Part shown: positions 324 through 15,353 of the stretch, piece by piece | How positions within the stretch are numbered: the stretch's first letter is position 1 | Layout of the letters: every line of letters begins with the position of its first letter | Assembly (NCBI GenBank): GCA_963706595.1 | Contig: OY970166.1 | Coordinates: 3,328,001 to 3,392,000, forward strand | DNA length: 64,000 bases | From: an uncultured cyanobacterium | Lineage (GTDB): Bacteria > Cyanobacteriota > Cyanobacteriia > Cyanobacteriales > Nostocaceae | Direction: 5' to 3' | The notes under the pieces: model-generated | Told to the model about the DNA's origin: nothing | Databases searched by the model: none | The model's input: only the letters and a program-made list of their open reading frames with translations | Made by a program: the position numbers and the translations under genes

Positions 324-1190
324 TCACTCCCTGGTTTCGATATCGTATAACTGGCATAAAGTGAGCAGTTTTTGTTTTAGGCGATCGCGCACATTTTCTG
401 GCATAATCACTACACAGTCTGGCGCATATTGCATCACTTCACGACTAAACCAAAAGGTACTGGATACACGCCTGATAACTCGCCGCACTTTGGGTTTATC
501 TGGTAGCCATTCATTGATATTGTCTTCTGGTTTCGCTTTATAGCCAAAAGCCAAGCCACCAAATATGTGCATTTCTACTTCTATCTCATCTAAGTGATTA
601 CGCCACTCCCCAGGAATAGAAATCACCGCCGCATCTGTAATTCTATCTAAACGCAAACACCAGTTATGAATTAGTTCGGGGATATCAAAGTTTCCTTCTG
701 TTTCTTCACACCAGCAATCAAGATATTCCCGCTTTTCGTGGGGATTAAGCTTTGCATGGCGGACGGTAAAATTAAATATACGCCCTGCTGGATCTTGATA
801 GGAAAGCTGAAATGGTTGCTGTCGCCGGATATAGTTATCTATTTGTAAGCGCCAAGCTGGGGGGAGGTTTTCTAGGAAACCTTGAATTTCGGTTCGCAAT
901 GGTATTGATAGTTCGCTGCGTTCGAGAAGTAAATTGGCAATAATTTGAGCTTGTTCTATTTGTCCAATATCGGTTAATGCACCAATACATCGGTGTAATG
1001 CCCTAATGCGGGCTTCTGTCCAATCATTATTATTACCGATAAGTAGCTTTCTTTGAGCGATCGCTTCTACCAGTTTCGAGATATTCGGGCGATCGCCCCA
1101 CATCATACCAAATTGTAAGGCGATCGCTTCTAGTTCCGCTTTATCGCGTTCTGTTAAAGAGAGAGTTATAGACTGACCTTTCCGACTCAT
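324..1190 (-). CDS. WYL-domain transcriptional regulator with N-terminal RHH-like domain, CRISPR I-D associated (Sll7009-like)
   Basis: SITLSL..DKAELEAIA N-terminus; FQLSY..REYLDCWCEE..LRLDRI WYL core; divergent from cas3. Confidence 0.85.
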   Translation of the reverse strand: MSRKGQSITLSLTERDKAELEAIALQFGMMWGDRPNISKLVEAIAQRKLLIGNNNDWTEARIRALHRCIGALTDIGQIEQAQIIANLLLERSELSIPLRTEIQGFLENLPPAWRLQIDNYIRRQQPFQLSYQDPAGRIFNFTVRHAKLNPHEKREYLDCWCEETEGNFDIPELIHNWCLRLDRITDAAVISIPGEWRNHLDEIEVEMHIFGGLAFGYKAKPEDNINEWLPDKPKVRRVIRRVSSTFWFSREVMQYAPDCVVIMPENVRDRLKQKLLTLCQLYDIETRE

Positions 1191-1286
1191 ATTTATACGG
1201 ACACTTTATATGGATATATCTTGCCAATCTTTATTTTGCATGGCAATATAAGAAGTAACAACCAGTTACGGACACTATTTAAGTTT
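1191..1286. promoter_or_regulatory. Divergent WYL/cas3 promoter region with candidate operator repeats
   Basis: TACGGACACT direct repeat at 1196-1205 and 1267-1276; TTGCCA-N14-TGGCAA inverted repeat at 1221-1246. Confidence 0.55.
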
Positions 1287-3468
1287 ATGTCCGAAGAATA
1301 CAAAATTACTCTCAAGCCTGTTTATTCTCAAACCGTCCCCACACCTGACGGAGTGAAATTACCTAAAGATTGGTCGCTTTCTTGGCATCAATTAGCTACA
1401 TTAGAAGCACTACGCGATCCAAATATTGATGTAGTATTCAACACAGCCATGACAGGCGATGGTAAAAGCTTGGCTGCATATTTAGAAGTTCTCCAAAGTC
1501 AATTTTCCGCCATTGGACTTTACCCAACTAATGAACTCGCCCGTGACCAAGAAACGCAAATTAGAGGATATATTGAACAATTCCAGCCAGAAGATGAGCC
1601 GCGTGTAGTTAGATTAAGTGGGGCTGATTTAGAAAATTATGCCGAAAATGAAGGATTGAAAAAAGCAGCAGCAATTTCTACCCTCACTAGCCAAAGAGAG
1701 GTATTACTCACTAACCCCGATATTTTTCACTACTTGCATCGAGGGGCTTATATAATTCGTGGCGATAGCCCAGATAAGTTATGGGGCAGAATTGATAAAG
1801 ATTTTGACTTATTTATTTTTGATGAGTTCCATGTTTTTGCAGCCCCTCAAATTGCCAGTGTAATTAACACAATGTTGTTAATTCGCTGTACAAATCGCCG
1901 CAAAAAATTTCTGTTTCTCTCAGCTACACCAGACACAAATTTAATTGGTAGATTAGAACAGGCAGGATTTCGTTGTCAAGTTATTAATCCTATTGCCGAA
2001 AATAAATACCAATTTCCCGAAACACCAGAAGAAGGACAGCAACTGCAAACACAGGGCTGGCGGCAGGTAGTCGCGAACAATCTCATTGAATTTTATTCCT
2101 TTAGAACCTGCTTTTAAATCTTCGGAAACTTGGCTAAAAGAAAACAGTGATTTAATTTTAGCTCAATTTCAACAGTATCCAGGTAGTAAAGGAGCAATTA
2201 TTCTCAATTCAATTGCAGCAGTCAAACGCCTAACGGTATTCTTTCAGGAAATATTCAAACCTTATAAATTAACAGTAGGAGAAAATACCGGACTTTCGGG
2301 AAAAGGCATAAAAGAGCAAAGTTTGATGGCTGATTTAGTTATTGGCACTAGCACAATTGATGTGGGGGTGGATTTTAAAATCAATTTTCTGATTTTTGAA
2401 TCATCAGATGCAGGTAACTTTATTCAGCGTTTGGGGCGATTAGGCAGACATGAAGGCTATGAGAAAAATGGTCAAATAATTAAATTTGAAAAGTTTACAG
2501 CTTTTGCCCTTGATGCCTAACTTTTTAGTAGAACGTTTATTTCAGGTAGATTCAGCACCCTTAGAGGTAAATAGTATATATGAGCGTCCATGTTTTCATA
2601 ATACAATTAGTGAAAATTATCGACAAATAAATGATTTTCGTGGTTATTATCGCCGTTGGGGAACTGTACAATCATTTTGGCTGTATTATCAATTGAGCGA
2701 TCGCACAATTAAACAACAGTATGCCCAAAGCCGAGAAACAGTTTCAAAAAGCCTGTGAGGAAGTCTTTGGAAGCAAGCTGAATCCATAGCTGGACGTAGT
2801 TTCAGGATGGGCGAAAGAATGGAAAGCACTGTCAGGTAAATCAGGAAATCCCATCGCTGACGATGCGGCTAGTTTTCGAGGTTCTAGTCCTTTGCAATGT
2901 GGTATTATACGATTTAACCGAAGAAAACGAAGCAGACAGGTTTAAAACCTACGATTTACCGGGAATTTTGGGCAATTTGGACATTGAGATGTGGACAGAG
3001 GCGGGATTTGTACGGACACTTAAAGAAACCGCACAACGCACCGGACAACCCATAGCCAAAGGTAGATTTGCTCATTGTCTAGCATTTATGAAGTTGCGTT
3101 CCTACCGCGAGGAACGGCTGAACTGGAAATTTACATATCCTGGGGACTTACAGCCAATAGCCGACGCTTGGAAAGTTCAGGTTTTAACTGGCGTGGAAAT
3201 TTGGCAACCTGACAATCAATGGATTGGTGCAATTAACAAACGACTGAAGAAGGAAGGTTTGGTTTGTTATGTAATTCGCCGTCCTGTGTCTGAGGTGCGG
3301 ATGCGGTTACGGCTACCGATGCACTTTCAGATTTATCCCATTAGTGATCAGTATAGCTTTCATGATGTTAGTGCGCCGTATGCGATCGCCTTTGGTCACT
3401 CTGCACTGCTGCTAGATACCCTCGCTTACACGTTTAAAAGCACAGGAGATGAGATATGGATTGTTTAA
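1287..3468 (+). pseudogene. cas3: Type I-D Cas3' helicase, split by several frameshifts as sequenced (possibly sequencing indels)
   Basis: Motifs TGDGKS, YPTNEL, DEFH, LSATP, TSTIDVGVD and QRLGRLGRH spread over ORFs 1221-2117, 2086-2520, 2486-2758 and 2863-3468; no HD domain; likely start ATG 1287. Confidence 0.9.
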
Positions 3469-3469
3469 C

Positions 3470-3584
3470 GTTTCAATCCCTGATAGGGATTTTAGTGATT
3501 GAAAGTCTAAAGGCGGAAGAACGAGCAGTAGTACGTTCACAGGGTATTTTTTCAATCCCTGATAGGGATTCAATGAATTTAAGC
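3470..3584 (-). CRISPR. Single-spacer mini-array (crRNA-like regulatory RNA) with two degenerate I-D repeats, opposite orientation to the main array
   Basis: Repeats 3470-3505 and 3549-3584 keep AATCCCTATCAGGGATTGAAA of the main repeat on the minus strand; 43-nt spacer 3506-3548. Confidence 0.9.
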
Positions 3585-3646
3585 GCTTTAGACTTATACT
3601 ATAATTATAGTACACAAGTTTTACACAGGGTAAAAAAGTTTCCCTG

Positions 3647-3689
3647 GTTAATACAATGTGAACTCTATGTACTGTTCATTATTCTGACT
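3647..3689 (+). promoter_or_regulatory. Predicted target of the mini-array crRNA: GTT PAM plus partial protospacer overlapping a TACAAT -10-like box upstream of ORF 3700
   Basis: PAM GTT 3647-3649; guide nt 1-14 match 12/14; after a 2-nt offset guide nt 19-38 match 15/20. Confidence 0.8.
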
Positions 3690-3699
3690 AATCAGGAAA

Positions 3700-3996
3700 A
3701 TGCAAAATCGAAATGCCGACCCCCACCTGACCAACCTTATACTCAATGCTGATTTTGAGCATCTTAACCAAGCATTGACTCTACGCCTATTTGATGAAGT
3801 CCGTGAAAACCGACGTAGTATTAGTGCGTTAAAAAGACAATTAGACGCGCTAAATGAAGATATATTACACATACTTGACAATCAAGATATGGAAATAAGC
3901 GAGTGTAAGGATCTGATTCTGAATCGTATTAGAAATCAGACTAGCGAAATTGAAGAGTTAAGGAGTCTCGTTAATTGGTATTGCATACCAGACTAA
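3700..3996 (+). CDS. Hypothetical 98-aa coiled-coil protein
   Basis: ATG preceded by AGGA; heptad-like Leu/Ile pattern; no family recognised. Confidence 0.6.
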   Translation: MQNRNADPHLTNLILNADFEHLNQALTLRLFDEVRENRRSISALKRQLDALNEDILHILDNQDMEISECKDLILNRIRNQTSEIEELRSLVNWYCIPD

Positions 3997-4055
3997 AATG
4001 AGATTTTCAACGTATTAAATGAGACAAGCCTTTACCGCCAATAACTACTGCGGCT

Positions 4056-5075
4056 ATGAATAAACCAATTTCAGACGAATACAGAAATTTACTAATAGAA
4101 GTAAAACAACGCATTCGTTCTGCCCAATATGAAGCACTGAAAGCAGTCAATAAAGAACTCATTGCCCTTTATTGGGATATTGGAAAGATGATTGTTACTC
4201 GACAACAGAATGCTACTTGGGGTAAATCAGTGGTGGAACAGTTAGCAAAAGACTTACAAGCAGAGTTTCCTGGGATTAGTGGTTTTTCTACGGCAAACCT
4301 TTGGCGAATGAGGCTTTTTTATGAAACTTATACCAAGAATGAAAAACTCGCACCATTGGTGCGAGAAATTGGATGGACTCACAATATAGTCATTTTAGAA
4401 AAGTGCAAAGATGACTTGGAACGAGAGTTTTATATCAAAATGACTCGCAAATTTGGTTGGACAAAGAATGTTTTGATTCACCAAATTGAAAATCAAACTT
4501 ATGAAAAGACTCTGTTGAATCAGACTAACTTTGATCAAACTGTTCCAGCAGAGATCCGTAATCAATTAAAACTAGCTGTCAAAGATGAATATACTTTCGA
4601 TTTCTTGGAACTAGCAGATGAACACAGCGAACGACAGCTAGAAGAAGCGATTTTGGCAAGAGTTGAACCATTTTTACAAGAAATGGGCGGGATATTTGCT
4701 TTTATCGGTAGTCAATATCGACTAGAAATTAATGATGAAGAATATTTCATAGATATTTTATTATACCATCGCTGTTTAAAGTGTTTGGTAGCAATAGAAC
4801 TAAAAATTGGTAAATTTTTACCCGAATATATTGGTAAAATGCAGTTTTATTTGGCTGTATTAGATGACACGGTAAAATTACCTGATGAAAATCCTTCCAT
4901 TGGTATAATTCTTTGTAAATCTAAGCAGAGAACCATCGTTGAATATGCATTAAAAGAATCTAATAAACCAATTGGTGTAGGAACTTATCAAATAGTTTCA
5001 ACATTGCCTGAAGAATTAAAAAATCAACTTCCAGACCCAGAGCAAGTTGCAAAACTGCTAGAAGGTTTTGAATAA
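4056..5075 (+). CDS. DUF1016 / YhcG-family PD-(D/E)XK nuclease domain protein
   Basis: YWDIGKMI, KDEYTFDFL, IDILLYH..IELKIG and GKMQFYL..PSIGIILCK motifs. Confidence 0.9.
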   Translation: MNKPISDEYRNLLIEVKQRIRSAQYEALKAVNKELIALYWDIGKMIVTRQQNATWGKSVVEQLAKDLQAEFPGISGFSTANLWRMRLFYETYTKNEKLAPLVREIGWTHNIVILEKCKDDLEREFYIKMTRKFGWTKNVLIHQIENQTYEKTLLNQTNFDQTVPAEIRNQLKLAVKDEYTFDFLELADEHSERQLEEAILARVEPFLQEMGGIFAFIGSQYRLEINDEEYFIDILLYHRCLKCLVAIELKIGKFLPEYIGKMQFYLAVLDDTVKLPDENPSIGIILCKSKQRTIVEYALKESNKPIGVGTYQIVSTLPEELKNQLPDPEQVAKLLEGFE

Positions 5076-5168
5076 ACACTCGAATTTATAAAATTAATTA
5101 TGTGGTTAATCAATATCCGTTTTACGTGCGATAAATAAATACCTATTTAATTACATTGGATGTAGATA

Positions 5169-8100
5169 ATGAATAAAAAAACAAAACCCACCGCAAAAAA
5201 TCAACAACTGTCTTTGTTTGAAAATAATACTGAAGAAACGGAAGAATTAGAAGATGATTTCTTAAATCAAGACTTTGGCTTTGATGGTGATTCTTCAGAC
5301 CGTACCATTGAAAATGACGGCGAATTACTCACACTCAAGTTATTGCGAGAAGCAATTCAGGCGGAAAATCCTGATGATCAAGTAATGGCAGATTTTGCCG
5401 AATATGTTTTACCAAACTTGCTAAAGATAGCCATTGGTGTCACGGCTAAAGGAGGTAAATTCTTTGATGAAATCGACCAACAGCGAGAAGCAGAAGGTAA
5501 AACTAAAGTTAGGCGAGATAATGCTGCTGACCAATCTCTAAATACTCACTTACTCAATGGGTTATTTCCCGCTAATTTAATAGAAAAGCGGTTAGAAAAA
5601 CTCAATACCACAGTGCGGCGAGTGGTGAAAGAAAGAGAACGCCGCTTAGTAATTGCTGGGTTTATTTTACATGATTTTGAAAAATTTCCTGATGCACCAG
5701 AAGATTGTCGCAAGTTACCGTTAGCAGAACATCGCCAAATTATTGATCAAAAAGTTCGCCAGTTAGGACTTGATAAGTTTATCAACCCAGATAACTCAGA
5801 AGCTTATCGAGAGTATTTAGATGATTTATTGTGCATGGCTTATAATGCTCAACGACGCTGGGATACTAACTGGAATTTCTCGGAATTTGGCTTAAATCCT
5901 GTTCTCAAAGACCGTACCCTTCGCAGTCTGTCTGATTTAACTTGTTTGGCTGATTCTCTCGCTTCAATTGTTAAACATCCTCAAGATGCAGAAAATACCA
6001 GACTCCAAGAAATTATCCATAATTTGAGTGATGGACAGTTGAAATTTACCTATCACAGCATTGCTGAGAATAGAGGTGTTTTAACTAATGTGGTGAATAA
6101 TGCTTTAATTAAAGCTCATACAAGTCTTAACACTGATGAAAATATCTACTATGAACCTTTGTTATATCTGCCAACAGGTGTAATTTATTTAGCTTTGCGT
6201 AATGCGCCACCTATTGCACAAGCAGACTTATCAGACCGTGTAGTTGATAGTATTAAATCACTTTGTGCAGGTCAATTGCGCCTCAGACAAACAGGATTTG
6301 GTAGAGATGGTAAAGGTATGAAATATGCCGAATATTACAATTTATTCTTTGATGATTTAGGTTTAATGCGAGTAGCTTTAGATGCTACATTACGTATATT
6401 GAATCCAAACAAAACTTCTGTTGCTCAAAGTCGCAGTGAAAATCTGATTAAATTTCAGCAAAAAAATGTTTTATCTCCTGATTATAACTTTAACTTTACA
6501 GATGATATCCGCATCGACCAAATAGCCGAATTTGGTGATTTAATCAGTCGGAAGATTTGGGAAGAAACAGTTAATCGCATTGATGTTGCTAGGAAGAAAG
6601 ATAAAAAACTGCCAGCAGTTCCAGATTTAGATTTAACTCACAAAGTGGCAGAGTTTTGGAACTTAGCAGAATATTTACCCCCCATTCGAGAAATTCAACG
6701 CATTAATGAAAGTCTCAAAGAAAATAAGTTAAAAGGAAATACTGGCGGAGTACCTTATGAATGGTATTACCTCGCAGCGAAATATCTCGAACTTCATCCT
6801 GGAATTGAAAATGTCCGCGAAACTTGTCAGCAAGTTATCGATTACTTAGCAACTTTGATTTCTCCGATTATTTCTCAGTATGAATTACCTGATGGGTGGG
6901 ATGATTTAAGGCTTTGGGTAAATCGCGTTGTCATGTTACCAAACACAAATCAAGAATTATCACCCGAAACTCAAGTTCAGACATTTTTAGAGGAGTTAAA
7001 TAACTATAATGCTGCCAAAAAACCAGGACGAGGAAAACAACTTATTTGCTCAATTTCTCACTCAGCTTATACTGTGACTGAACAAATGGAATCAGCAGTT
7101 TTATTTACGCCGCAGGTTTATACAAATAAGCAAATGTTAGGAGGTTCTAACGCCAAGCGTAATATTTCTAGTATTGCTGGTGTAGAGATGATGCTGAGGC
7201 AAATATTAATGAATCAAACTCAAGCAGTTGGGAAACGATTTGAGGATGGTAAATATCGCTATCTCTACTTTTACCCGACTTATTACTTCACACCGGAAAC
7301 TAATAAGTTTTTGCAAAAAGCTTACAACGGTATTGCTCAAACTCGCTTTGATACCAGCGTCCGTAATCATTTTATCAGTAAGGATTTACAAGCCGATTTA
7401 TCTAGAGAAAATTACCAAAGTGTAGATAGTTTCTTAATTGACGAAAATCTCCAGGCTGACAAAGACCGCACATTTAAACTTTCTTATCCAGAAGACCAGC
7501 CTTTAACATTTTACTTCATGGCACTGCCACCAGGAAGAGATAGCACAGATACAGAATCTTGGGTAATGCCAACTTGGTTAGCCTTTGCTTTTCCGATGAT
7601 TTTAGATGTGAAAACTGTGGTTTCTGAGTCGCCAATTCCACCTTTTAACGATGGTTCTGAATTTGAGGAAAGCGTTTTCTTAGATAGTGCGCCTCATGCT
7701 TTCCGGGCTTTGGTAAAAAGAGATAGATTTCGTCTTGACTATATTCTGGAAGGTTGGCAAGAAAACGGTATTCAATACCCTGCACCCTTGAATGTGCTTA
7801 CAGCCGCTTATGCCATTCATTTAGATGTGAATGCTAGACAAGGTAAAACTGGTTACGATGCCAATTGGGGGAGATTTACAGAACTAGCAAAGGATTTTGA
7901 AACCAGTTCTTTGTATGTGTTTGCTTATCTCAATCGTTGGGTGCGTAACCAAGGAGTAGAAACAGCACGCATTGAGAAAATTAGGCTTTATGTCTATCAT
8001 TTTTACCCTTGTTTTGACCCTTATGTTAAATATGACAAAAATATGGAGCAATTAATTGTGGGAGAAGAATCAAGCCTAAATCATCCGAAAAAAGTAACAG

Positions 8101-8507
8101 ATTTATACCGCCGATTTTACCGAGCAAATAAGCGTTATAATCCCAAGTCTAATGCTGTGTTGAAACCAATAGATATCGCTGCTGAAACTATTCTTAAAGC
8201 TGACTCAAGTGTGTTTCATGGAGAAACATTAGTGGCGGCTGTAGCGGCTGAAGTCTTCAAACTCATGGATCGTGTTCATTCTTCTACTGCTGAAGGACGT
8301 TGGGTAATGAGTAAACGGGAGGAAGAACGACAAGCTGTTCTGGAGTTTGCTAAATATTTTGTACAGGAGGTATTTGAGAAATCTTTTGCAGGCGATCGCG
8401 CACGTTTAGCAGGTCGTCAACTTAACTTAATTCGAGATACTTGTGAATTTCTTTATCGCCTTGAAGATGACAAAGAAAATGCAGAAAAACTTGTAGAAAC
8501 CGAATAG
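5169..8507 (+). CDS. cas10d: Type I-D large subunit Cas10d (Csc3) with HD domain
   Basis: DQSLNTHLLNG and LHDFEK HD motifs; 1112 aa; position upstream of csc2 and csc1. Confidence 0.93.
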   Translation: MNKKTKPTAKNQQLSLFENNTEETEELEDDFLNQDFGFDGDSSDRTIENDGELLTLKLLREAIQAENPDDQVMADFAEYVLPNLLKIAIGVTAKGGKFFDEIDQQREAEGKTKVRRDNAADQSLNTHLLNGLFPANLIEKRLEKLNTTVRRVVKERERRLVIAGFILHDFEKFPDAPEDCRKLPLAEHRQIIDQKVRQLGLDKFINPDNSEAYREYLDDLLCMAYNAQRRWDTNWNFSEFGLNPVLKDRTLRSLSDLTCLADSLASIVKHPQDAENTRLQEIIHNLSDGQLKFTYHSIAENRGVLTNVVNNALIKAHTSLNTDENIYYEPLLYLPTGVIYLALRNAPPIAQADLSDRVVDSIKSLCAGQLRLRQTGFGRDGKGMKYAEYYNLFFDDLGLMRVALDATLRILNPNKTSVAQSRSENLIKFQQKNVLSPDYNFNFTDDIRIDQIAEFGDLISRKIWEETVNRIDVARKKDKKLPAVPDLDLTHKVAEFWNLAEYLPPIREIQRINESLKENKLKGNTGGVPYEWYYLAAKYLELHPGIENVRETCQQVIDYLATLISPIISQYELPDGWDDLRLWVNRVVMLPNTNQELSPETQVQTFLEELNNYNAAKKPGRGKQLICSISHSAYTVTEQMESAVLFTPQVYTNKQMLGGSNAKRNISSIAGVEMMLRQILMNQTQAVGKRFEDGKYRYLYFYPTYYFTPETNKFLQKAYNGIAQTRFDTSVRNHFISKDLQADLSRENYQSVDSFLIDENLQADKDRTFKLSYPEDQPLTFYFMALPPGRDSTDTESWVMPTWLAFAFPMILDVKTVVSESPIPPFNDGSEFEESVFLDSAPHAFRALVKRDRFRLDYILEGWQENGIQYPAPLNVLTAAYAIHLDVNARQGKTGYDANWGRFTELAKDFETSSLYVFAYLNRWVRNQGVETARIEKIRLYVYHFYPCFDPYVKYDKNMEQLIVGEESSLNHPKKVTDLYRRFYRANKRYNPKSNAVLKPIDIAAETILKADSSVFHGETLVAAVAAEVFKLMDRVHSSTAEGRWVMSKREEERQAVLEFAKYFVQEVFEKSFAGDRARLAGRQLNLIRDTCEFLYRLEDDKENAEKLVETE
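8058..8507 (+). CDS. cas11d: Predicted internally initiated small subunit Cas11d (149 aa), in frame within cas10d
   Basis: GGAG at 8045-8048, 9 nt before an in-frame GTG at 8058; size fits described Cas11d. Confidence 0.6.
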   Translation: MGEESSLNHPKKVTDLYRRFYRANKRYNPKSNAVLKPIDIAAETILKADSSVFHGETLVAAVAAEVFKLMDRVHSSTAEGRWVMSKREEERQAVLEFAKYFVQEVFEKSFAGDRARLAGRQLNLIRDTCEFLYRLEDDKENAEKLVETE

Positions 8508-8559: not shown

Positions 8560-9570
8560 ATGTCATTTCTCAAAACTGTTGAATCCAAATTATTTCAATC
8601 TGAAATACCCTATAAACCAATGGGTAAATATGTCCATTTTCTCACTGTCCGCATCACTGAATCTTATCCTCTCTTTCAAACAGATGGAGAATTAAATAAA
8701 GCCAGAGTACGAGCCGGAGTCAAAGATAAGACTACAATTAGCCGTTTGTCAATGTTTAAACGCAAACAGTCTACACCAGAGCGTTTAGTTGGACGGGAAT
8801 TACTGCGTAACTATGGCTTGATGACTGCGGAAGAATGCGAATATAACGTTAGTTTTGCAATGGATAATCCTGATTGCATCATTTACGGTTTTGCTATTGG
8901 TGATTCTGGTTCTGAAAAATCTAAAGTTGTAGTAGATACCGCATTTTCAATTACATCTTTTGATCAATCACACGAAACATTTACTCTTAACGCTCCCTAT
9001 GAAAATGGTACAATGGCTTCTAAGGGTGAAAATGGTTCTAAACCGGGTGAAGTCACCAGTCGAATTAATCAGCAAGATCATATTATTCCACAGGTTTTCT
9101 TCCCTAGTATTGTCACCCTCAAAGACCCCACTGAAGCTAGTTTTCTTTACGTTTTTAACAATATCCTCAGAACGCGCCACTATGGAGCGCAGACTACCCG
9201 TACAGGTCGCGTTAGAAATGAGTTAATTGGTGTTGTATTTGCAGATGGAGAAATTACCAGTAATCTCCGTTGGACTCAAGCAATATATGATCAAATGAAG
9301 GCACAAAATACAATCAATCCTCCTGAACCTTTGGATGAAGATGATGTAATTACTGCTGCTAAAAGTGCAATTGAGGCTTTAATGGCTGATGAGTTTATTG
9401 TGCATACTGATTTCATTGGTGATGCTTTTTCACCTCTACTAAATGAAGTTAAAAGCATAGTGGGTGATGAAACAGGAATTAAGGCAGTTTTAGAAAAAGC
9501 TGATGCAGAAGCGAAAAATTATGCCAGTAAACATATTAGCAAAAAGAAAACTGCTGCTAAGGCTAAGTAA
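8560..9570 (+). CDS. cas7: Type I-D Cas7 (Csc2)
   Basis: RLSMFKRKQSTPERLVGRELLR, DCIIYGFA and YGAQTTRTG motifs. Confidence 0.93.
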   Translation: MSFLKTVESKLFQSEIPYKPMGKYVHFLTVRITESYPLFQTDGELNKARVRAGVKDKTTISRLSMFKRKQSTPERLVGRELLRNYGLMTAEECEYNVSFAMDNPDCIIYGFAIGDSGSEKSKVVVDTAFSITSFDQSHETFTLNAPYENGTMASKGENGSKPGEVTSRINQQDHIIPQVFFPSIVTLKDPTEASFLYVFNNILRTRHYGAQTTRTGRVRNELIGVVFADGEITSNLRWTQAIYDQMKAQNTINPPEPLDEDDVITAAKSAIEALMADEFIVHTDFIGDAFSPLLNEVKSIVGDETGIKAVLEKADAEAKNYASKHISKKKTAAKAK

Positions 9571-9575
9571 CAGCT

Positions 9576-10283
9576 ATGGCTATAATCTACCGATGTCAAT
9601 TAGAACTACACGACAGCCTCTATTTTGCGACTCGTGAAATTGGGCGACTCTACGAAACAGAGCCGATAATTCATAATTACGCTCTTTGTTATGCACTGGG
9701 TTTAGTTGATAGCGAAATCTACTCTACTACGGTGGCTGAAGAACATTCCTATCGCTATTTTTGCCCTGAACAAGTGCCAAAATATGAGGAGCATTTAACC
9801 CCACTTAATCAACAGGGGATTTATATTACTCCGGCTCGTTCTCTCAAGCATTCAGCCATTCTCAATACCTGGAAGTATGCTAACAACAACTACCACGTTG
9901 AAATGGAGAAAACACAGAAGAATATTCCTAGTTTTGGCAGAGCAAAGGAAATTGCGCCAGAAAGTCAATTTGAGTTTTTCGTAATTTCTCAAAAACAAGT
10001 TAAATTACCAAAATGGGTTCGTTTGGGTAAATGGATGAGTAAGGCTGAGGTGACGGTTGCAGAGTTACCTAAATCTAAAACTATTTCAGGTGTATTTACT
10101 TGTAAATATCCTTTAAATCCTTTAGATGTGATGTTTACTCATCAAGTTATTAGCTATGATGTGGTAAATATGCCTCCAGTTAGTCTGATTCAAAATGTGC
10201 AAATGCGCGGTGAATACTATCAGTTTGAGGGTATTCCAGAATTAAAGCTTCCGGCTAGGATGGAATATCGTTTTCAAGGTTAA
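9576..10283 (+). CDS. cas5: Type I-D Cas5 (Csc1)
   Basis: LYFATREIGRLYETEPIIHNYALCYALG and RLGKWMSK motifs. Confidence 0.92.
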   Translation: MAIIYRCQLELHDSLYFATREIGRLYETEPIIHNYALCYALGLVDSEIYSTTVAEEHSYRYFCPEQVPKYEEHLTPLNQQGIYITPARSLKHSAILNTWKYANNNYHVEMEKTQKNIPSFGRAKEIAPESQFEFFVISQKQVKLPKWVRLGKWMSKAEVTVAELPKSKTISGVFTCKYPLNPLDVMFTHQVISYDVVNMPPVSLIQNVQMRGEYYQFEGIPELKLPARMEYRFQG

Positions 10284-10559
10284 TCATTTGGCTTCTTGCA
10301 AAGGTCTTTTTTAGAAAGTTGAAACTGCGGTTTCAGTTAATAAATTAGTGCTTTTGCAGGAGGCGTATTCACAAGGTTGATGCAAAGGAATGAAGTTCTC
10401 TTTATTCTATTTGTGTTGTGAAGATGAACGAACCGCCAAGTCGCCAAGTGCGCCAAGGAATGACGGAGAAGATTTTAGGTTCGCGCGGGAGTGTGTCTGC
10501 AAGATTTATGATTACTGGTAGATATTTATTTTATTCTTCTATTGCTCTCTATACTGACT

Positions 10560-11171
10560 GTGAAACACTTTCAACAACAACCCAACGCTTTCCCTAGCGA
10601 ATACCTAAATAATTTATGGGGAGAAATTCAAGCTTGTCGCTATTTTGCTATCAATAATCTCAACCGCGATTTTGTCGGGACGAAGGGATTTTCTGTAGTA
10701 TTCAGGCGATCGCACATCCCCACAGTACAAGAAAAGTTCCCCTACTTCAAATCATACCTCGATTTGGCTCTGCAACCGGGTTGTAATGCTTTTTACCTCA
10801 ATCCGTTACAACTCAAGGAAGGTTCCCGTGTAGACCCGCACATTGACCGCTCGTTGCGTTCTTACTGCAAAACCATTGAACCGCCGGCAGTTGTCAGCGT
10901 TCTTTATGTGCGCTTACCTGAAAATATGGAAGGGGGAGAATTGGTACTGAAGTCGCAGAAACGCCAACTGGGACAAATTAAGCCCCAGGTAAATACTTTA
11001 GTTTACTTCCAAGGTGATTTAACCCACTCTGTCAACGCTGTGAAAACTCCGGGAAATCGCTTGAGTTTGGTTTGTGAACAGTATAGTTTGAGTGAAGCGG
11101 AACTTGCAGAAATCCCAGAATTTACTGTGGAATCAAGAATTGTTCAGTCCACAACAAAAAAACGCAAGTAA
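10560..11171 (+). CDS. 2OG-Fe(II) oxygenase superfamily protein inside the cas operon
   Basis: HxD (PHIDRS), GGEL, distal H (LTHSV) and R (NRLSLV); likely GTG start at 10560. Confidence 0.85.
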   Translation: MKHFQQQPNAFPSEYLNNLWGEIQACRYFAINNLNRDFVGTKGFSVVFRRSHIPTVQEKFPYFKSYLDLALQPGCNAFYLNPLQLKEGSRVDPHIDRSLRSYCKTIEPPAVVSVLYVRLPENMEGGELVLKSQKRQLGQIKPQVNTLVYFQGDLTHSVNAVKTPGNRLSLVCEQYSLSEAELAEIPEFTVESRIVQSTTKKRK

Positions 11172-11261: not shown

Positions 11262-12089
11262 ATGCCTCATAGCTTAGTTCTCAACCTACTTCCGCAATCG
11301 TCTATCCCATCCCAGTTTCTCACAGGGAGACATCTGCACGCACTATTTTTGACCCTTGTTAGTTCTGTAGATCACGCATTAGGCGATCGCCTACATGATT
11401 CTACCGCAGATAAAGCCTTCACCCTCTCACCCCTACAAACTAATTTCCCGTCTCAGGGAACTAGGGGAATATCTAAATTGCAACACTCACATCAACAACC
11501 CATTTCCGCCGGAACCCCTTGTTGGTGGCGCATTTCTCTCTTAGATGACACACTTTTTAGCGAACTTACTCAACTCTGGCTGAATCTTAACCCCAATCAT
11601 CCTTGGCATCTTGGCCCTGCTGACTTGTATATTACCAGCATTCAAGGCACACCCCAATCTACCCAACCCTGGGCAAATGCCTGTAGCTATACCCAATTAT
11701 ACGAGCAAGCCAGCGATCGCGATCGCGCCATTGACTTTATTTTCTCCACACCTACCGCCTTTCGCCAAGGAAAATTTGACACTACCCTTCCTACGAGAGA
11801 ATGTGTTTTCAATTCCCTGCTTTCCCGGTGGAATAAATATAGTGGAATCGAATTTTCTCAATTTTCCATCGAGTCAATATTTCCCTCCTTTGTCAACATT
11901 CGTACAGAAATATTAGCAGACTCCCGCAGCAAATTTATCGGCATTGTCGGAGAAGTTAATTATCGGATTTTAGGTGAAATTGAACCCATACAAATTAAAC
12001 AAATTAACGCTTTAGCCGAATTTGCTTTATATGCAGGTGTAGGACGAAAAACACCAATGGGTATGGGGATGATGCGGCGACGACATTAA
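11262..12089 (+). CDS. cas6: CRISPR-associated endoribonuclease Cas6
   Basis: GRHLHALF, FSTPTAFRQ and C-terminal GVGRKTPMGMG loop. Confidence 0.95.
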   Translation: MPHSLVLNLLPQSSIPSQFLTGRHLHALFLTLVSSVDHALGDRLHDSTADKAFTLSPLQTNFPSQGTRGISKLQHSHQQPISAGTPCWWRISLLDDTLFSELTQLWLNLNPNHPWHLGPADLYITSIQGTPQSTQPWANACSYTQLYEQASDRDRAIDFIFSTPTAFRQGKFDTTLPTRECVFNSLLSRWNKYSGIEFSQFSIESIFPSFVNIRTEILADSRSKFIGIVGEVNYRILGEIEPIQIKQINALAEFALYAGVGRKTPMGMGMMRRRH

Positions 12090-14362: not shown

Positions 14363-15353
14363 GTTCCAATTACTAATAATCCCTATCAGGGATTGAAACC
14401 AATGATTATGAAGCTGCTGCTATGGTTACAGCCTTCCAATTACTAATAATCCCTATCAGGGATTGAAACCAAAATTAAGGCAGAGGTTTCAATGTAAGGT
14501 TGAAAGTTCCAATTACTAATAATCCCTATCAGGGATTGAAACTTATCTTTGTATTTGTCGGGTAAAACACTTAACAGTTCCAATTACTAATAATCCCTAT
14601 CAGGGATTGAAACAAATACTTAGGGCAAATGCTAGCGGGTGAATTATCTGTTCCAATTACTAATAATCCCTATCAGGGATTGAAACTTTAGTATCCACTT
14701 GTTTCAGCAAACACTCGCTTAAGTTCCAATTACTAATAATCCCTATCAGGGATTGAAACACTATAATTTAATAGAAGAAAAGTGGGGAGACTCAGTTCCA
14801 ATTACTAATAATCCCTATCAGGGATTGAAACAATGGCATATCTTCATCCTCTTCTGTTGGTTCTGGGTGTTCCAATTACTAATAATCCCTATCAGGGATT
14901 GAAACTGAAGCCACGTATGAATCTGGAAATTTTGTATTCAAGTTCCAATTACTAATAATCCCTATCAGGGATTGAAACTAAGCAATTTGACCGTGAGCGG
15001 GGGACAGGTGACACGTGTTCCAATTACTAATAATCCCTATCAGGGATTGAAACCGCCGACTCTGAAGGTGAATGGGTAGCTTGGATTGGGCATCGTTCCA
15101 ATTACTAATAATCCCTATCAGGGATTGAAACGCCAGTATTCAGAGGTAAGCTCATCATTCCAATCAAGTTCCAATTACTAATAATCCCTATCAGGGATTG
15201 AAACGGGCAAATTCACGATGGCTTGCCACAGGCTACCAGTTCCAATTACTAATAATCCCTATCAGGGATTGAAACAGCAGTTCTTTTCCTTGTATTTGAA
15301 TGTATATTTGCCACATGTTCCAATTACTAATAATCCCTATCAGGGATTGAAAT
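14363..15353 (+). CRISPR. Type I-D CRISPR array, 14 repeats and 13 spacers
   Basis: 37-nt repeat GTTCCAATTACTAATAATCCCTATCAGGGATTGAAAC; spacers 33-41 nt; repeat 2 starts with C; last repeat ends GAAAT. Confidence 0.98.

Follow-up and report, generated by a model that had tools for sequence, protein, structure and literature searches.

Mini-array and matching site behind cas3′

The sequence analysed here is a window of 64,000 nucleotides (nt) from an uncultured cyanobacterium of the family Nostocaceae (GenBank assembly GCA_963706595.1, contig OY970166.1, positions 3,328,001–3,392,000, forward strand), which carries a type I-D CRISPR locus. The gap between the helicase gene cas3′ and the effector genes contained two degenerate copies of the CRISPR repeat on the minus strand, which enclosed a single spacer-like sequence, and, further on and on the plus strand, a site that partly matched this sequence directly upstream of a small open reading frame (ORF), ORF3700. 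The segment from 3470 to 3584 is probably a regulatory mini-array of the type I-D system of this locus, i.e., a gene for a CRISPR RNA (crRNA)-like RNA of the CreA/CreR kind. The mini-array, the matched site, which is flanked by a protospacer-adjacent motif (PAM), and the first gene behind it were composed of the following features.

3470..3505, minus strand: downstream degenerate repeat, psi-R2; 33/37 identity to the array repeat; Rfam CRISPR-DR5, 45 bits (gathering score 40)
3506..3548, minus strand: spacer-like guide, 43 nt, conserved in 10 related loci
3549..3584 (or 3585), minus strand: upstream degenerate repeat, psi-R1; 30/37 identity to the array repeat; Rfam CRISPR-DR5, 30.7 bits (3550–3584), sub-threshold
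8 nt directly before the guide start at 3548, minus strand: handle of psi-R1, AUUGAAAA
3585..3634, minus strand: leader and presumed promoter of the mini-array, with a TATAAT box at 3609–3604 read by eye
3647..3649, plus strand: GTT, type I-D PAM on the non-target strand, matching 5′-GTN-3′
3650..3663, plus strand: target segment matched by the seed, 12/14; guide positions 6 and 7 mismatched
3670..3689, plus strand: second matched block, guide nt 19–38, 15/20, displaced by 2 extra target bases
3700..3996, plus strand: ORF3700, 98 amino acids (aa), first gene past the target, predicted to form a single long helix

The repeat identities were obtained by global alignment against the 37-nt repeat of the main array. 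The downstream repeat, psi-R2, began 2 nt past the stop codon of cas3′ and would supply the Cas6 hairpin for the 3′ end of the guide. The 5′ half of psi-R1 was decayed, and its hairpin and 8-nt handle (ATTGAAAA) were retained. A 21-nt core, AATCCCTATCAGGGATTGAAA, with the hairpin and the ATTGAAA motif, was kept exactly in psi-R1 and psi-R2. Both hairpins folded in the predicted precursor RNA and were conserved in all eight guide-family sequences (8/8), and cleavage of the degenerate repeats would be expected from Cas6. The mini-array was inverted relative to the main array (minus versus plus strand) and was located 10.8 kb away from it, between cas3′ and the effector genes.

The leader (3586–3595) was linked to the 3′ end of the spacer (3503–3512) by a perfect inverted repeat of 10 nt, which encloses psi-R1 and the guide in the predicted precursor. 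This 10-bp stem was kept in 8/8 family sequences, with one compensatory pair. A conserved hairpin within the guide itself, which was suggested by palindromes in other guide families, was considered and dropped; in the guide family of the window, only a 5-bp stem without covariation was predicted.

A −10-like box, TACAAT, was located at 3652–3657, inside the seed-matched part of the target, and the target site was taken as a putative promoter from this box. The ungapped match stopped at guide nt 14, and the seed match ended 36 nt before the ATG of ORF3700. The mismatches of the second block were located at guide positions 24, 27, 30, 34, and 36, and the complete target site ended 10 nt upstream of the ATG at 3700. 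The repeats, guide, PAM, and match counts had been described in an original prediction made for this stretch, and all of its coordinates and counts were reproduced.

The frequency of such a match by chance was estimated with several controls. The pattern of GTN followed by 14 nt with at most two mismatches occurred twice in the 64-kb window, as the guide itself and as the target, whereas 0.02 occurrences were expected from shuffles and at least two occurrences were obtained in 0 of 100 shuffles. A shuffled seed equalled the observed local score in 1 of 200 trials, and none of 5000 trials with a shuffled second block gave 15/20 when all offsets between −4 and +4 were allowed. Genome-wide, 40 GT-flanked sites reached at least 11/15 on the seed measure defined below. 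The local site is significant by its position and not by uniqueness in the genome. These single-locus statistics are only suggestive, and the decisive evidence is comparative.

One remote site (C1:2273606, minus strand; L101, about 5565–5607), flanked by GTG, matched 14 of the first 15 guide nt and surpassed the local target in this respect. It was located inside a 431-aa ORF and not at a promoter, and was treated as a chance match (about 0.03 expected genome-wide by our own arithmetic).

Guide and target in related loci

Related loci were collected by a DNA search in 60 related genomes, followed by the fetching of 80 named cyanobacterial loci (L021–L100) with the C-terminus of Cas3. The arrangement in which the end of cas3 is followed by a minus-strand mini-array, with differing spacers, was first seen across related genomes by the DNA search. 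Among the fetched loci, the closest of which were Nodularia records with 98% identity, 54 of 80 contained two minus-strand degenerate repeats directly after cas3, giving 55 mini-array loci together with the window.

A GT-flanked guide match with at least 11 of 15 seed positions was found within 300 nt in 45 of the 55 loci. In this seed score, positions 6 and 12 were ignored and GT was required, and a site was accepted if at most 2 of 200 shuffled guides equalled it. The flanking sequence of the matched sites was GTT in 31 and GTC in 14 cases, and 36 sites were located on the plus strand and 9 on the minus strand. The sites were then rescored in an unbiased manner over 17 positions without requiring the PAM. 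The best site reached at least 12/17 in 52 of the 55 loci, and 44 of those best sites had GT at −3/−2, where about 1/16 would be expected. The unbiased and the first site calls gave the identical site in 42 of the 55 loci.

Raw locus counts overstate the independence of these observations, since the loci are kin, and the number of guide families is the safer measure. The guides fell into eight unrelated families (at least 12/16 identity within a family), of which seven had matching GT-flanked targets, and the guide and target were kept while the intergenic sequence around the element had diverged. The sequence comparison thus argues that guide and target co-vary and that their match has been kept through several sequence replacements. 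The original prediction had proposed that Cascade, the effector complex, is directed to a PAM-flanked and partly matching site in the adjacent promoter, and had named guide–target covariation across related I-D loci as a check. The 55-locus comparison supports this proposal, with seven of the eight unrelated guide families retaining a matching GT-flanked target.

The positions of the mismatches were examined in 37 unique guide–target pairs. Position 6 was mismatched in 24 pairs, position 12 likewise in 24, and position 18 in 32; there were no mismatches at positions 1–3, 8, 9, and 14, and 1 at positions 5 and 7. With the unbiased site call, positions 6, 12, and 18 were mismatched in 23, 21, and 32 of 36 pairs, respectively. 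About two thirds of the pairs were mismatched at positions 6 and 12, near the three quarters expected for unconstrained bases, and the guide–target match usually faded after 14–23 nt. Free positions at 6, 12, and 18 are the pattern that would be expected for a class 1 complex reading the target in 5-nt segments. The PAM 5′-GTN-3′ and the unpaired sixth bases on which the original prediction relied agree with the available text of a review (PMC10212523), according to which every sixth base is flipped out in I-D. The phase of the flipped bases is worded there as “starting at position one”, whereas the free positions in the present loci are 6, 12, and 18 when counted from the PAM-adjacent base.

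The guide family of the window was shared by 10 loci (the window, L025, L027, L028, L030, L053, L056, L057, L061, and L063). Position 6 was mismatched in all nine family loci having a GT-flanked target, and L061 had a 1-nt deletion in the seed region together with a GGT flank. For the second block, +2 was the best offset in 10/10 family loci, with 13–15 matches over 20 positions. Within this block, 5 of the 10 loci were mismatched at position 24, 8 at position 30, and all 10 at position 36. Off-phase mismatches also occurred at positions 25, 26, 27, 31, 34, and 35, and in nine of the loci the match had already ended before positions 36–38. Periodic mismatches were thus seen at positions 6, 12, and 18 across loci, whereas the rhythm that the original prediction claimed for the second block (24, 30, and 36) did not hold, as off-phase positions were mismatched as well.

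Guide position 27 co-varied with the target. It was G opposite a target G in L025, L030, and L063, C opposite C in L053, L056, and L061, and G opposite A in the window; this co-variation may represent one evolutionary event. The second block represents genuine, maintained homology.

Variations on this arrangement were observed in other guide families. In the family starting GAATAAGTCTG, two tandem GTT-flanked targets, 26 nt apart, were located about 81 and about 107 nt from the mini-array (L023, L024, L029, L033–L036, L058, L074, L080, L083, and L089). These tandem targets were just upstream of a TTGACA box, before a conserved gene of 65–75 aa.

In the guide families starting CTCC, TTCC, or TTCA, a second, near-full-length copy of the guide was found, likewise on the minus strand and 150–196 nt upstream of the mini-array (L031, about 4771–4810, minus strand; L043, L045, L049, L064, L077, and L099; L032 at about 150 nt). 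The second copy was flanked by AAT or ACT and not by GTN. In L077 its mismatches were located at positions 1, 6, 12, 18, 24, 26, 30, and 31, which corresponds to a 6-nt rhythm over 30 nt. In this orientation the guide is complementary to the plus-strand RNA of the cargo-gene leader, and the second copy could be a decayed third repeat–spacer unit or an RNA-level target of the I-D Cascade.

The closest named relatives, the Nodularia loci L021 and L022, were without this mini-array. A lone degenerate repeat, about 40 nt past cas3 and with a different spacer-like sequence, was present in L021, L026, L037, L038, and L065 (about 4560–4640), and L022 contained a repeat stub only, followed by other genes. 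The gap between cas3 and cas10d is a turnover hotspot.

ORF3700 and the type I-D gene set

ORF3700 gave no match in Pfam, NCBIfam, or PADLOC. The AlphaFold2 model of the protein was composed of one continuous helix (residues 19–94), with a mean predicted local distance difference test (pLDDT) value of 88.7 and a predicted template modelling (pTM) score of 0.50. A Foldseek search against the PDB gave no match at E ≤ 10, as might be expected of a single long helix. In the protein atlas, nothing reached 0.9, and the best matches, at 0.85, were to unnamed clusters. The family was tiny: a word-index search gave four clusters at 90% identity, one of which was the query's own, and a profile search gave 15 representatives at E ≤ 0.001 among 1.84 billion proteins.

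Homologues of ORF3700 were present in 10 fetched loci. They were the first ORF past the target in L025, L027, L030, L057, and L063 (65–72% identity), in L053 and L056 (about 33% identity over the full length), and in L055 and L079, where they were located behind two other unrelated guide families; L093 also contained a homologue. The ORF3700 family is thus found behind three unrelated guides, namely that of the window and those of L055 and L079. In L028 and L061, which retain the mini-array, ORF3700 was truncated or replaced by a variant. Different small genes with conserved N-termini, of about 65 aa or of 63–69 aa, followed the target in other guide families. The ORFs further downstream varied as well. 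L025 had ORFs of 80 and 119 aa, and L053 and L063 had a pair of ORFs of 150 aa; these resemble toxin–antitoxin pairs by eye.

The remaining genes of the locus, together with the main array, were as follows.

324..1190, minus strand: WYL/WCX-domain regulator gene; Pfam WCX 4.8e-06, PADLOC Cas-associated WYL 2.2e-12
1221..3468, plus strand: cas3′ helicase gene, spread over four reading frames, with DEAD and Cas3-like_C_2 on separate ORFs
4056..5075, plus strand: DUF1016/YhcG PD-(D/E)XK nuclease-family gene; Pfam YhcG_C 5.5e-62 and DUF1016_N 5.6e-49, PADLOC PDC-S02 5.8e-154
5169..8507, plus strand: cas10d (csc3), intact; TIGR03174, 1230.7 bits, whole profile covered
8560–9570, plus strand: csc2 (cas7d), intact; Pfam Csc2 5.6e-123
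9576–10283, plus strand: csc1 (cas5d), intact; TIGR03159 6.7e-80
11262..12089, plus strand: cas6, intact; Pfam CRISPR_Cas6_N 4e-76 and CRISPR_Cas6 2.1e-21
14363..15353, plus strand: main CRISPR array, 14 repeats of 37 nt, spacers of 33–41 nt

After csc1, the order of the locus was a 2OG-Fe(II) oxygenase gene, cas6, cas4, cas1, cas2, and the array. The type I-D gene set was complete, with matches to TIGR03174, TIGR03159, Pfam Csc2, Cas6, Cas4, Cas1, and Cas2 in addition to the array, and with cas3′ frameshifted. The cas10d, csc2, csc1, cas6, cas4, cas1, and cas2 genes all spanned their profiles. The genome contained a single I-D gene set, and the same repeat was present in six arrays and one solitary repeat.

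A WYL/WCX regulator is a customary companion of type I-D loci. The oxygenase gene (10542–11171), located between csc1 and cas6, matched the PADLOC Cas-associated ‘2OG’ model at 2.8e-84. Of the 80 fetched loci, 41 contained a full-length DUF1016/YhcG gene directly upstream of cas10d, irrespective of guide family. The gene belongs to the PADLOC candidate defence family PDC-S02 and appears to be a standard accessory of cyanobacterial I-D systems.

When cas3′ was compared with the intact orthologues in L021, L022, and L024, six single-base insertions or deletions were found between about 2071 and 2904, comprising insertions at about 2071, 2513, 2736, 2798, and 2904 and a deletion at about 2783. 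They were mostly outside homopolymer runs, and this cas3′ was the only copy in the genome. The frameshifts represent either a true pseudogene or a bad assembly of this stretch. If the decay is real, interference has probably been lost and DNA binding by Cascade preserved. A broken cas3′ is compatible with repression, because repression needs only DNA binding by Cascade and not Cas3′.

Proposed repression by Cascade and its alternatives

In the best reading of the sequence, the crRNA-like RNA would direct Cascade to repress ORF3700 and the DUF1016 gene, and possibly cas10d. Minus-strand transcription of the mini-array would start in the 115-nt intergenic region, and the resulting RNA would be cut by Cas6 within both degenerate repeats, to judge from the hairpin and the 8-nt handle, which are conserved exactly. 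The guide would be loaded into Cascade (Cas10d, Csc2, and Csc1, the genes of which are intact). Cascade would recognise the GTT at 3647–3649 and pair the target with guide nt 1–5 and 8–14, and further pairing of guide nt 19–35 may be possible across a 2-nt bulge in the target. This match would be too short and too interrupted for interference, and would overlie the TACAAT box together with the 5′ leader, 50 nt upstream of the ATG. In this way, ORF3700 and DUF1016 would be kept at a low level of transcription. The same may apply to the downstream Cascade genes, as the scan of 3300–5300 gave no plus-strand terminator-like site, either between ORF3700/DUF1016 and cas10d or elsewhere. Loss or inhibition of Cascade would release the promoter.

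Several observations weigh against repression by Cascade. The guide, at 43 nt, is longer than any spacer of the main array (33–41 nt), the handle of psi-R1 ends in A where the array repeat ends in C, and we know of no precedent for Cascade pairing across a 2-nt target bulge. No GT-flanked target was found within 300 nt in 10 of the 55 mini-array loci (L031, L043, L045, L046, L049, L061, L064, L072, L087, and L097). The promoters of the mini-array and of ORF3700 were both read by eye and were uncalled by a sigma-70 consensus scan of 3300–5300, which gave 6 promoter-like sites versus 7.2 expected, with none at the target or at the mini-array leader. The local seed match scores 11/15, with mismatches at the neighbouring positions 6 and 7, which places it among the weakest of the set, and it was equalled by 1 of 200 shuffles; three GT-flanked sites elsewhere in the genome outscore it at 12/15, and cas3′ is broken, so that the whole system may be decaying. 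These last points would also suit a functionless relic of an inverted array fragment, in which the nearby match would be due to chance or would be the trace of an old duplication. Such a relic is disfavoured and seems extremely improbable: the position, both hairpins, and the PAM-flanked match are kept across many genera and seven guide families, and guide and target persist where the surrounding intergenic sequence has diverged. Pairing without Cascade, at the level of RNA, would account for other features. In a read-through RNA of cas3, the reverse complement of the guide (3506–3548) would pair with 3650–3689, and the long imperfect hairpin would terminate, process, or mask the ORF3700 leader. 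A hairpin tolerates a 2-nt bulge between the matched blocks, and the +2 offset conserved in 10/10 family loci and the joint changes of guide position 27 and the target fit with it. However, a hairpin leaves unexplained the GT beside the match in 44 of the 55 loci, the free positions 6, 12, and 18, and the exactly retained Cas6 hairpin and handle of psi-R1 and psi-R2, and the match stops after about 14–23 nt in other guide families; we consider it very unlikely.

Repression by Cascade could serve different ends, depending on which gene of the transcript matters. If the targeted promoter is the main promoter of ORF3700–DUF1016–cas10d–csc2–csc1, the element would be an autorepressor of the CreR type, by which the level of Cascade is set through negative feedback, and ORF3700 and DUF1016 would be mere passengers of the regulation. 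This is a serious, if tentative, possibility. It is favoured by the lack of a plus-strand terminator-like site between 3700 and cas10d and by the short gene gaps of 59 and 93 nt. It is also favoured by the available text of Shmakov et al. (PMC10120712), where I-D targets are placed in the cas10d promoter region, and by that of the CreR preprint (10.1101/2023.03.10.532045), where creA-like I-D elements adjoin the effector promoter. However, two non-cas genes sit between the targeted promoter and cas10d, and the genes between the first small gene and cas10d vary within one guide family, with DUF433-like and PIN-like genes (named by reading the translations) intervening in L025 and the pair of 150-aa ORFs in L053 and L063. 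The target stays beside the ORF3700 homologue, 1–3 kb from cas10d, and an internal promoter before cas10d is possible. Alternatively, the element would be an addiction module like CreTA or CrePA, in which the promoter of a toxin encoded by ORF3700 would stay silent only in the presence of Cascade and the mini-array RNA, and cells in which Cascade is lost or inhibited would stop growing. Genes of the ORF3700 family were always the first behind the target, behind three unrelated guides, and the family is tiny and unannotated. The decayed cas3′ beside intact Cascade genes and cas6 is the pattern that would be left by an addiction needing Cascade and not Cas3. CreTA addiction reportedly requires Cascade but not Cas3. 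A protein toxin repressed by CreA has been published for I-F (10.1101/2024.01.05.574328). On the other hand, ORF3700 is without similarity to any toxin or defence family in Pfam, NCBIfam, and PADLOC, its model lacks an enzymatic fold, being one long helix, and gave nothing at E ≤ 10 in the PDB by Foldseek, and L028 and L061 keep the mini-array although their copy of the gene is truncated or has given way to a variant. Addiction is a doubtful explanation on this balance.

By analogy with CreT and CreP, the likeliest role of ORF3700 would be that of a CRISPR-repressed effector, such as a toxin or an alarm protein, and this assignment is made with low confidence. It is unlikely that two further points hold jointly, namely that in this guide family the I-D Cascade uses a two-part protospacer (guide nt 1–14, then nt 19–35, pairing only with a 2-nt bulge of the target strand) and that the ORF3700 family represents a novel effector under CRISPR repression that is specific to cyanobacterial I-D loci.

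CreTA is said to be a CRISPR-repressed toxin–antitoxin of the Haloarcula I-B system. The comparisons with published systems that follow refer to the available portions of the cited sources. CrePA places a protein toxin under CreA control in I-F (10.1101/2024.01.05.574328), and modules of the CreTA/CrePA kind guard Cascade against loss or against anti-CRISPRs. The present element resembles them in that a crRNA-like RNA with degenerate repeats adjoins a small gene and is predicted to repress its promoter through Cascade; it differs in belonging to subtype I-D and not to I-B or I-F. ORF3700 has no Pfam, NCBIfam, or PADLOC family, and the likeness is one of arrangement. In CreR (10.1101/2023.03.10.532045), a degenerate mini-CRISPR likewise guides its own effector to a partly matching site, and autorepression at the cas promoter can be relieved by crRNA load and by anti-CRISPRs. 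Unlike in CreR, the targeted promoter here is parted from cas10d by two non-cas genes, although autorepression of Cascade is possible. According to the preprint, autorepression was demonstrated experimentally in I-B, I-E, and V-A only, and creA-like elements were noted for I-D.

The closest correspondence is with the I-D mini-arrays described by Shmakov et al. in 2023 (PMC10120712). In that study, repeat-like sequences were enriched beside cas3 of I-D loci, 18% of which had long cas3–cas10d gaps, and the mini-arrays ran opposite to cas3, with partial, PAM-flanked seed matches in the cas10d promoter region. In two I-D Cas3 clades, toxin–antitoxin genes, regulators, and other “cargo” were found between the mini-array and cas10d, and the targets were located before the cargo. 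The element of the window shares the two repeat-like units in the cas3–cas10d gap, the orientation opposite to cas3, the partial, seed-led match in a promoter region with the PAM of the subtype, the tolerated mismatch at position 6, and the variable cargo downstream. In contrast to the published mini-arrays, in which the upstream repeat is better preserved, the downstream unit was closer to the array repeat here (33/37 versus 30/37). The available text of that paper says nothing of a second pairing block offset by 2 nt; its experiment concerned I-F1 and not I-D, and the name ‘Nodularia’ was absent from two of its supplement texts.

The class was thus already predicted computationally for I-D, including its cargo genes, and the principle is not new; the element of the window is a well-supported further example of a published class. 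Within the limited collection of literature searched, regulation by mini-arrays had been tested in I-B, I-E, I-F, and V-A, and for I-D only computational predictions were found, with no experimental test in I-D and no cyanobacterial study of such an element. The distinctive points of the present locus are ORF3700, the conserved second block with its 2-nt offset, and a frameshifted cas3′ beside intact Cascade genes.

The locus and its 54 relatives provide a clean comparative data set, with an empirical map of the guide positions that matter for binding of the I-D Cascade, and point specifically to a small protein, conserved but uncharacterised, as the regulated gene. A two-part protospacer, if true, would permit stable binding yet prevent a complete R-loop and self-cleavage. 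If ORF3700 is a repressed effector, this would explain why the Cascade genes stay intact while cas3′ decays, and an effector released upon failure of Cascade would extend the anti-anti-CRISPR “guard” idea to cyanobacteria.

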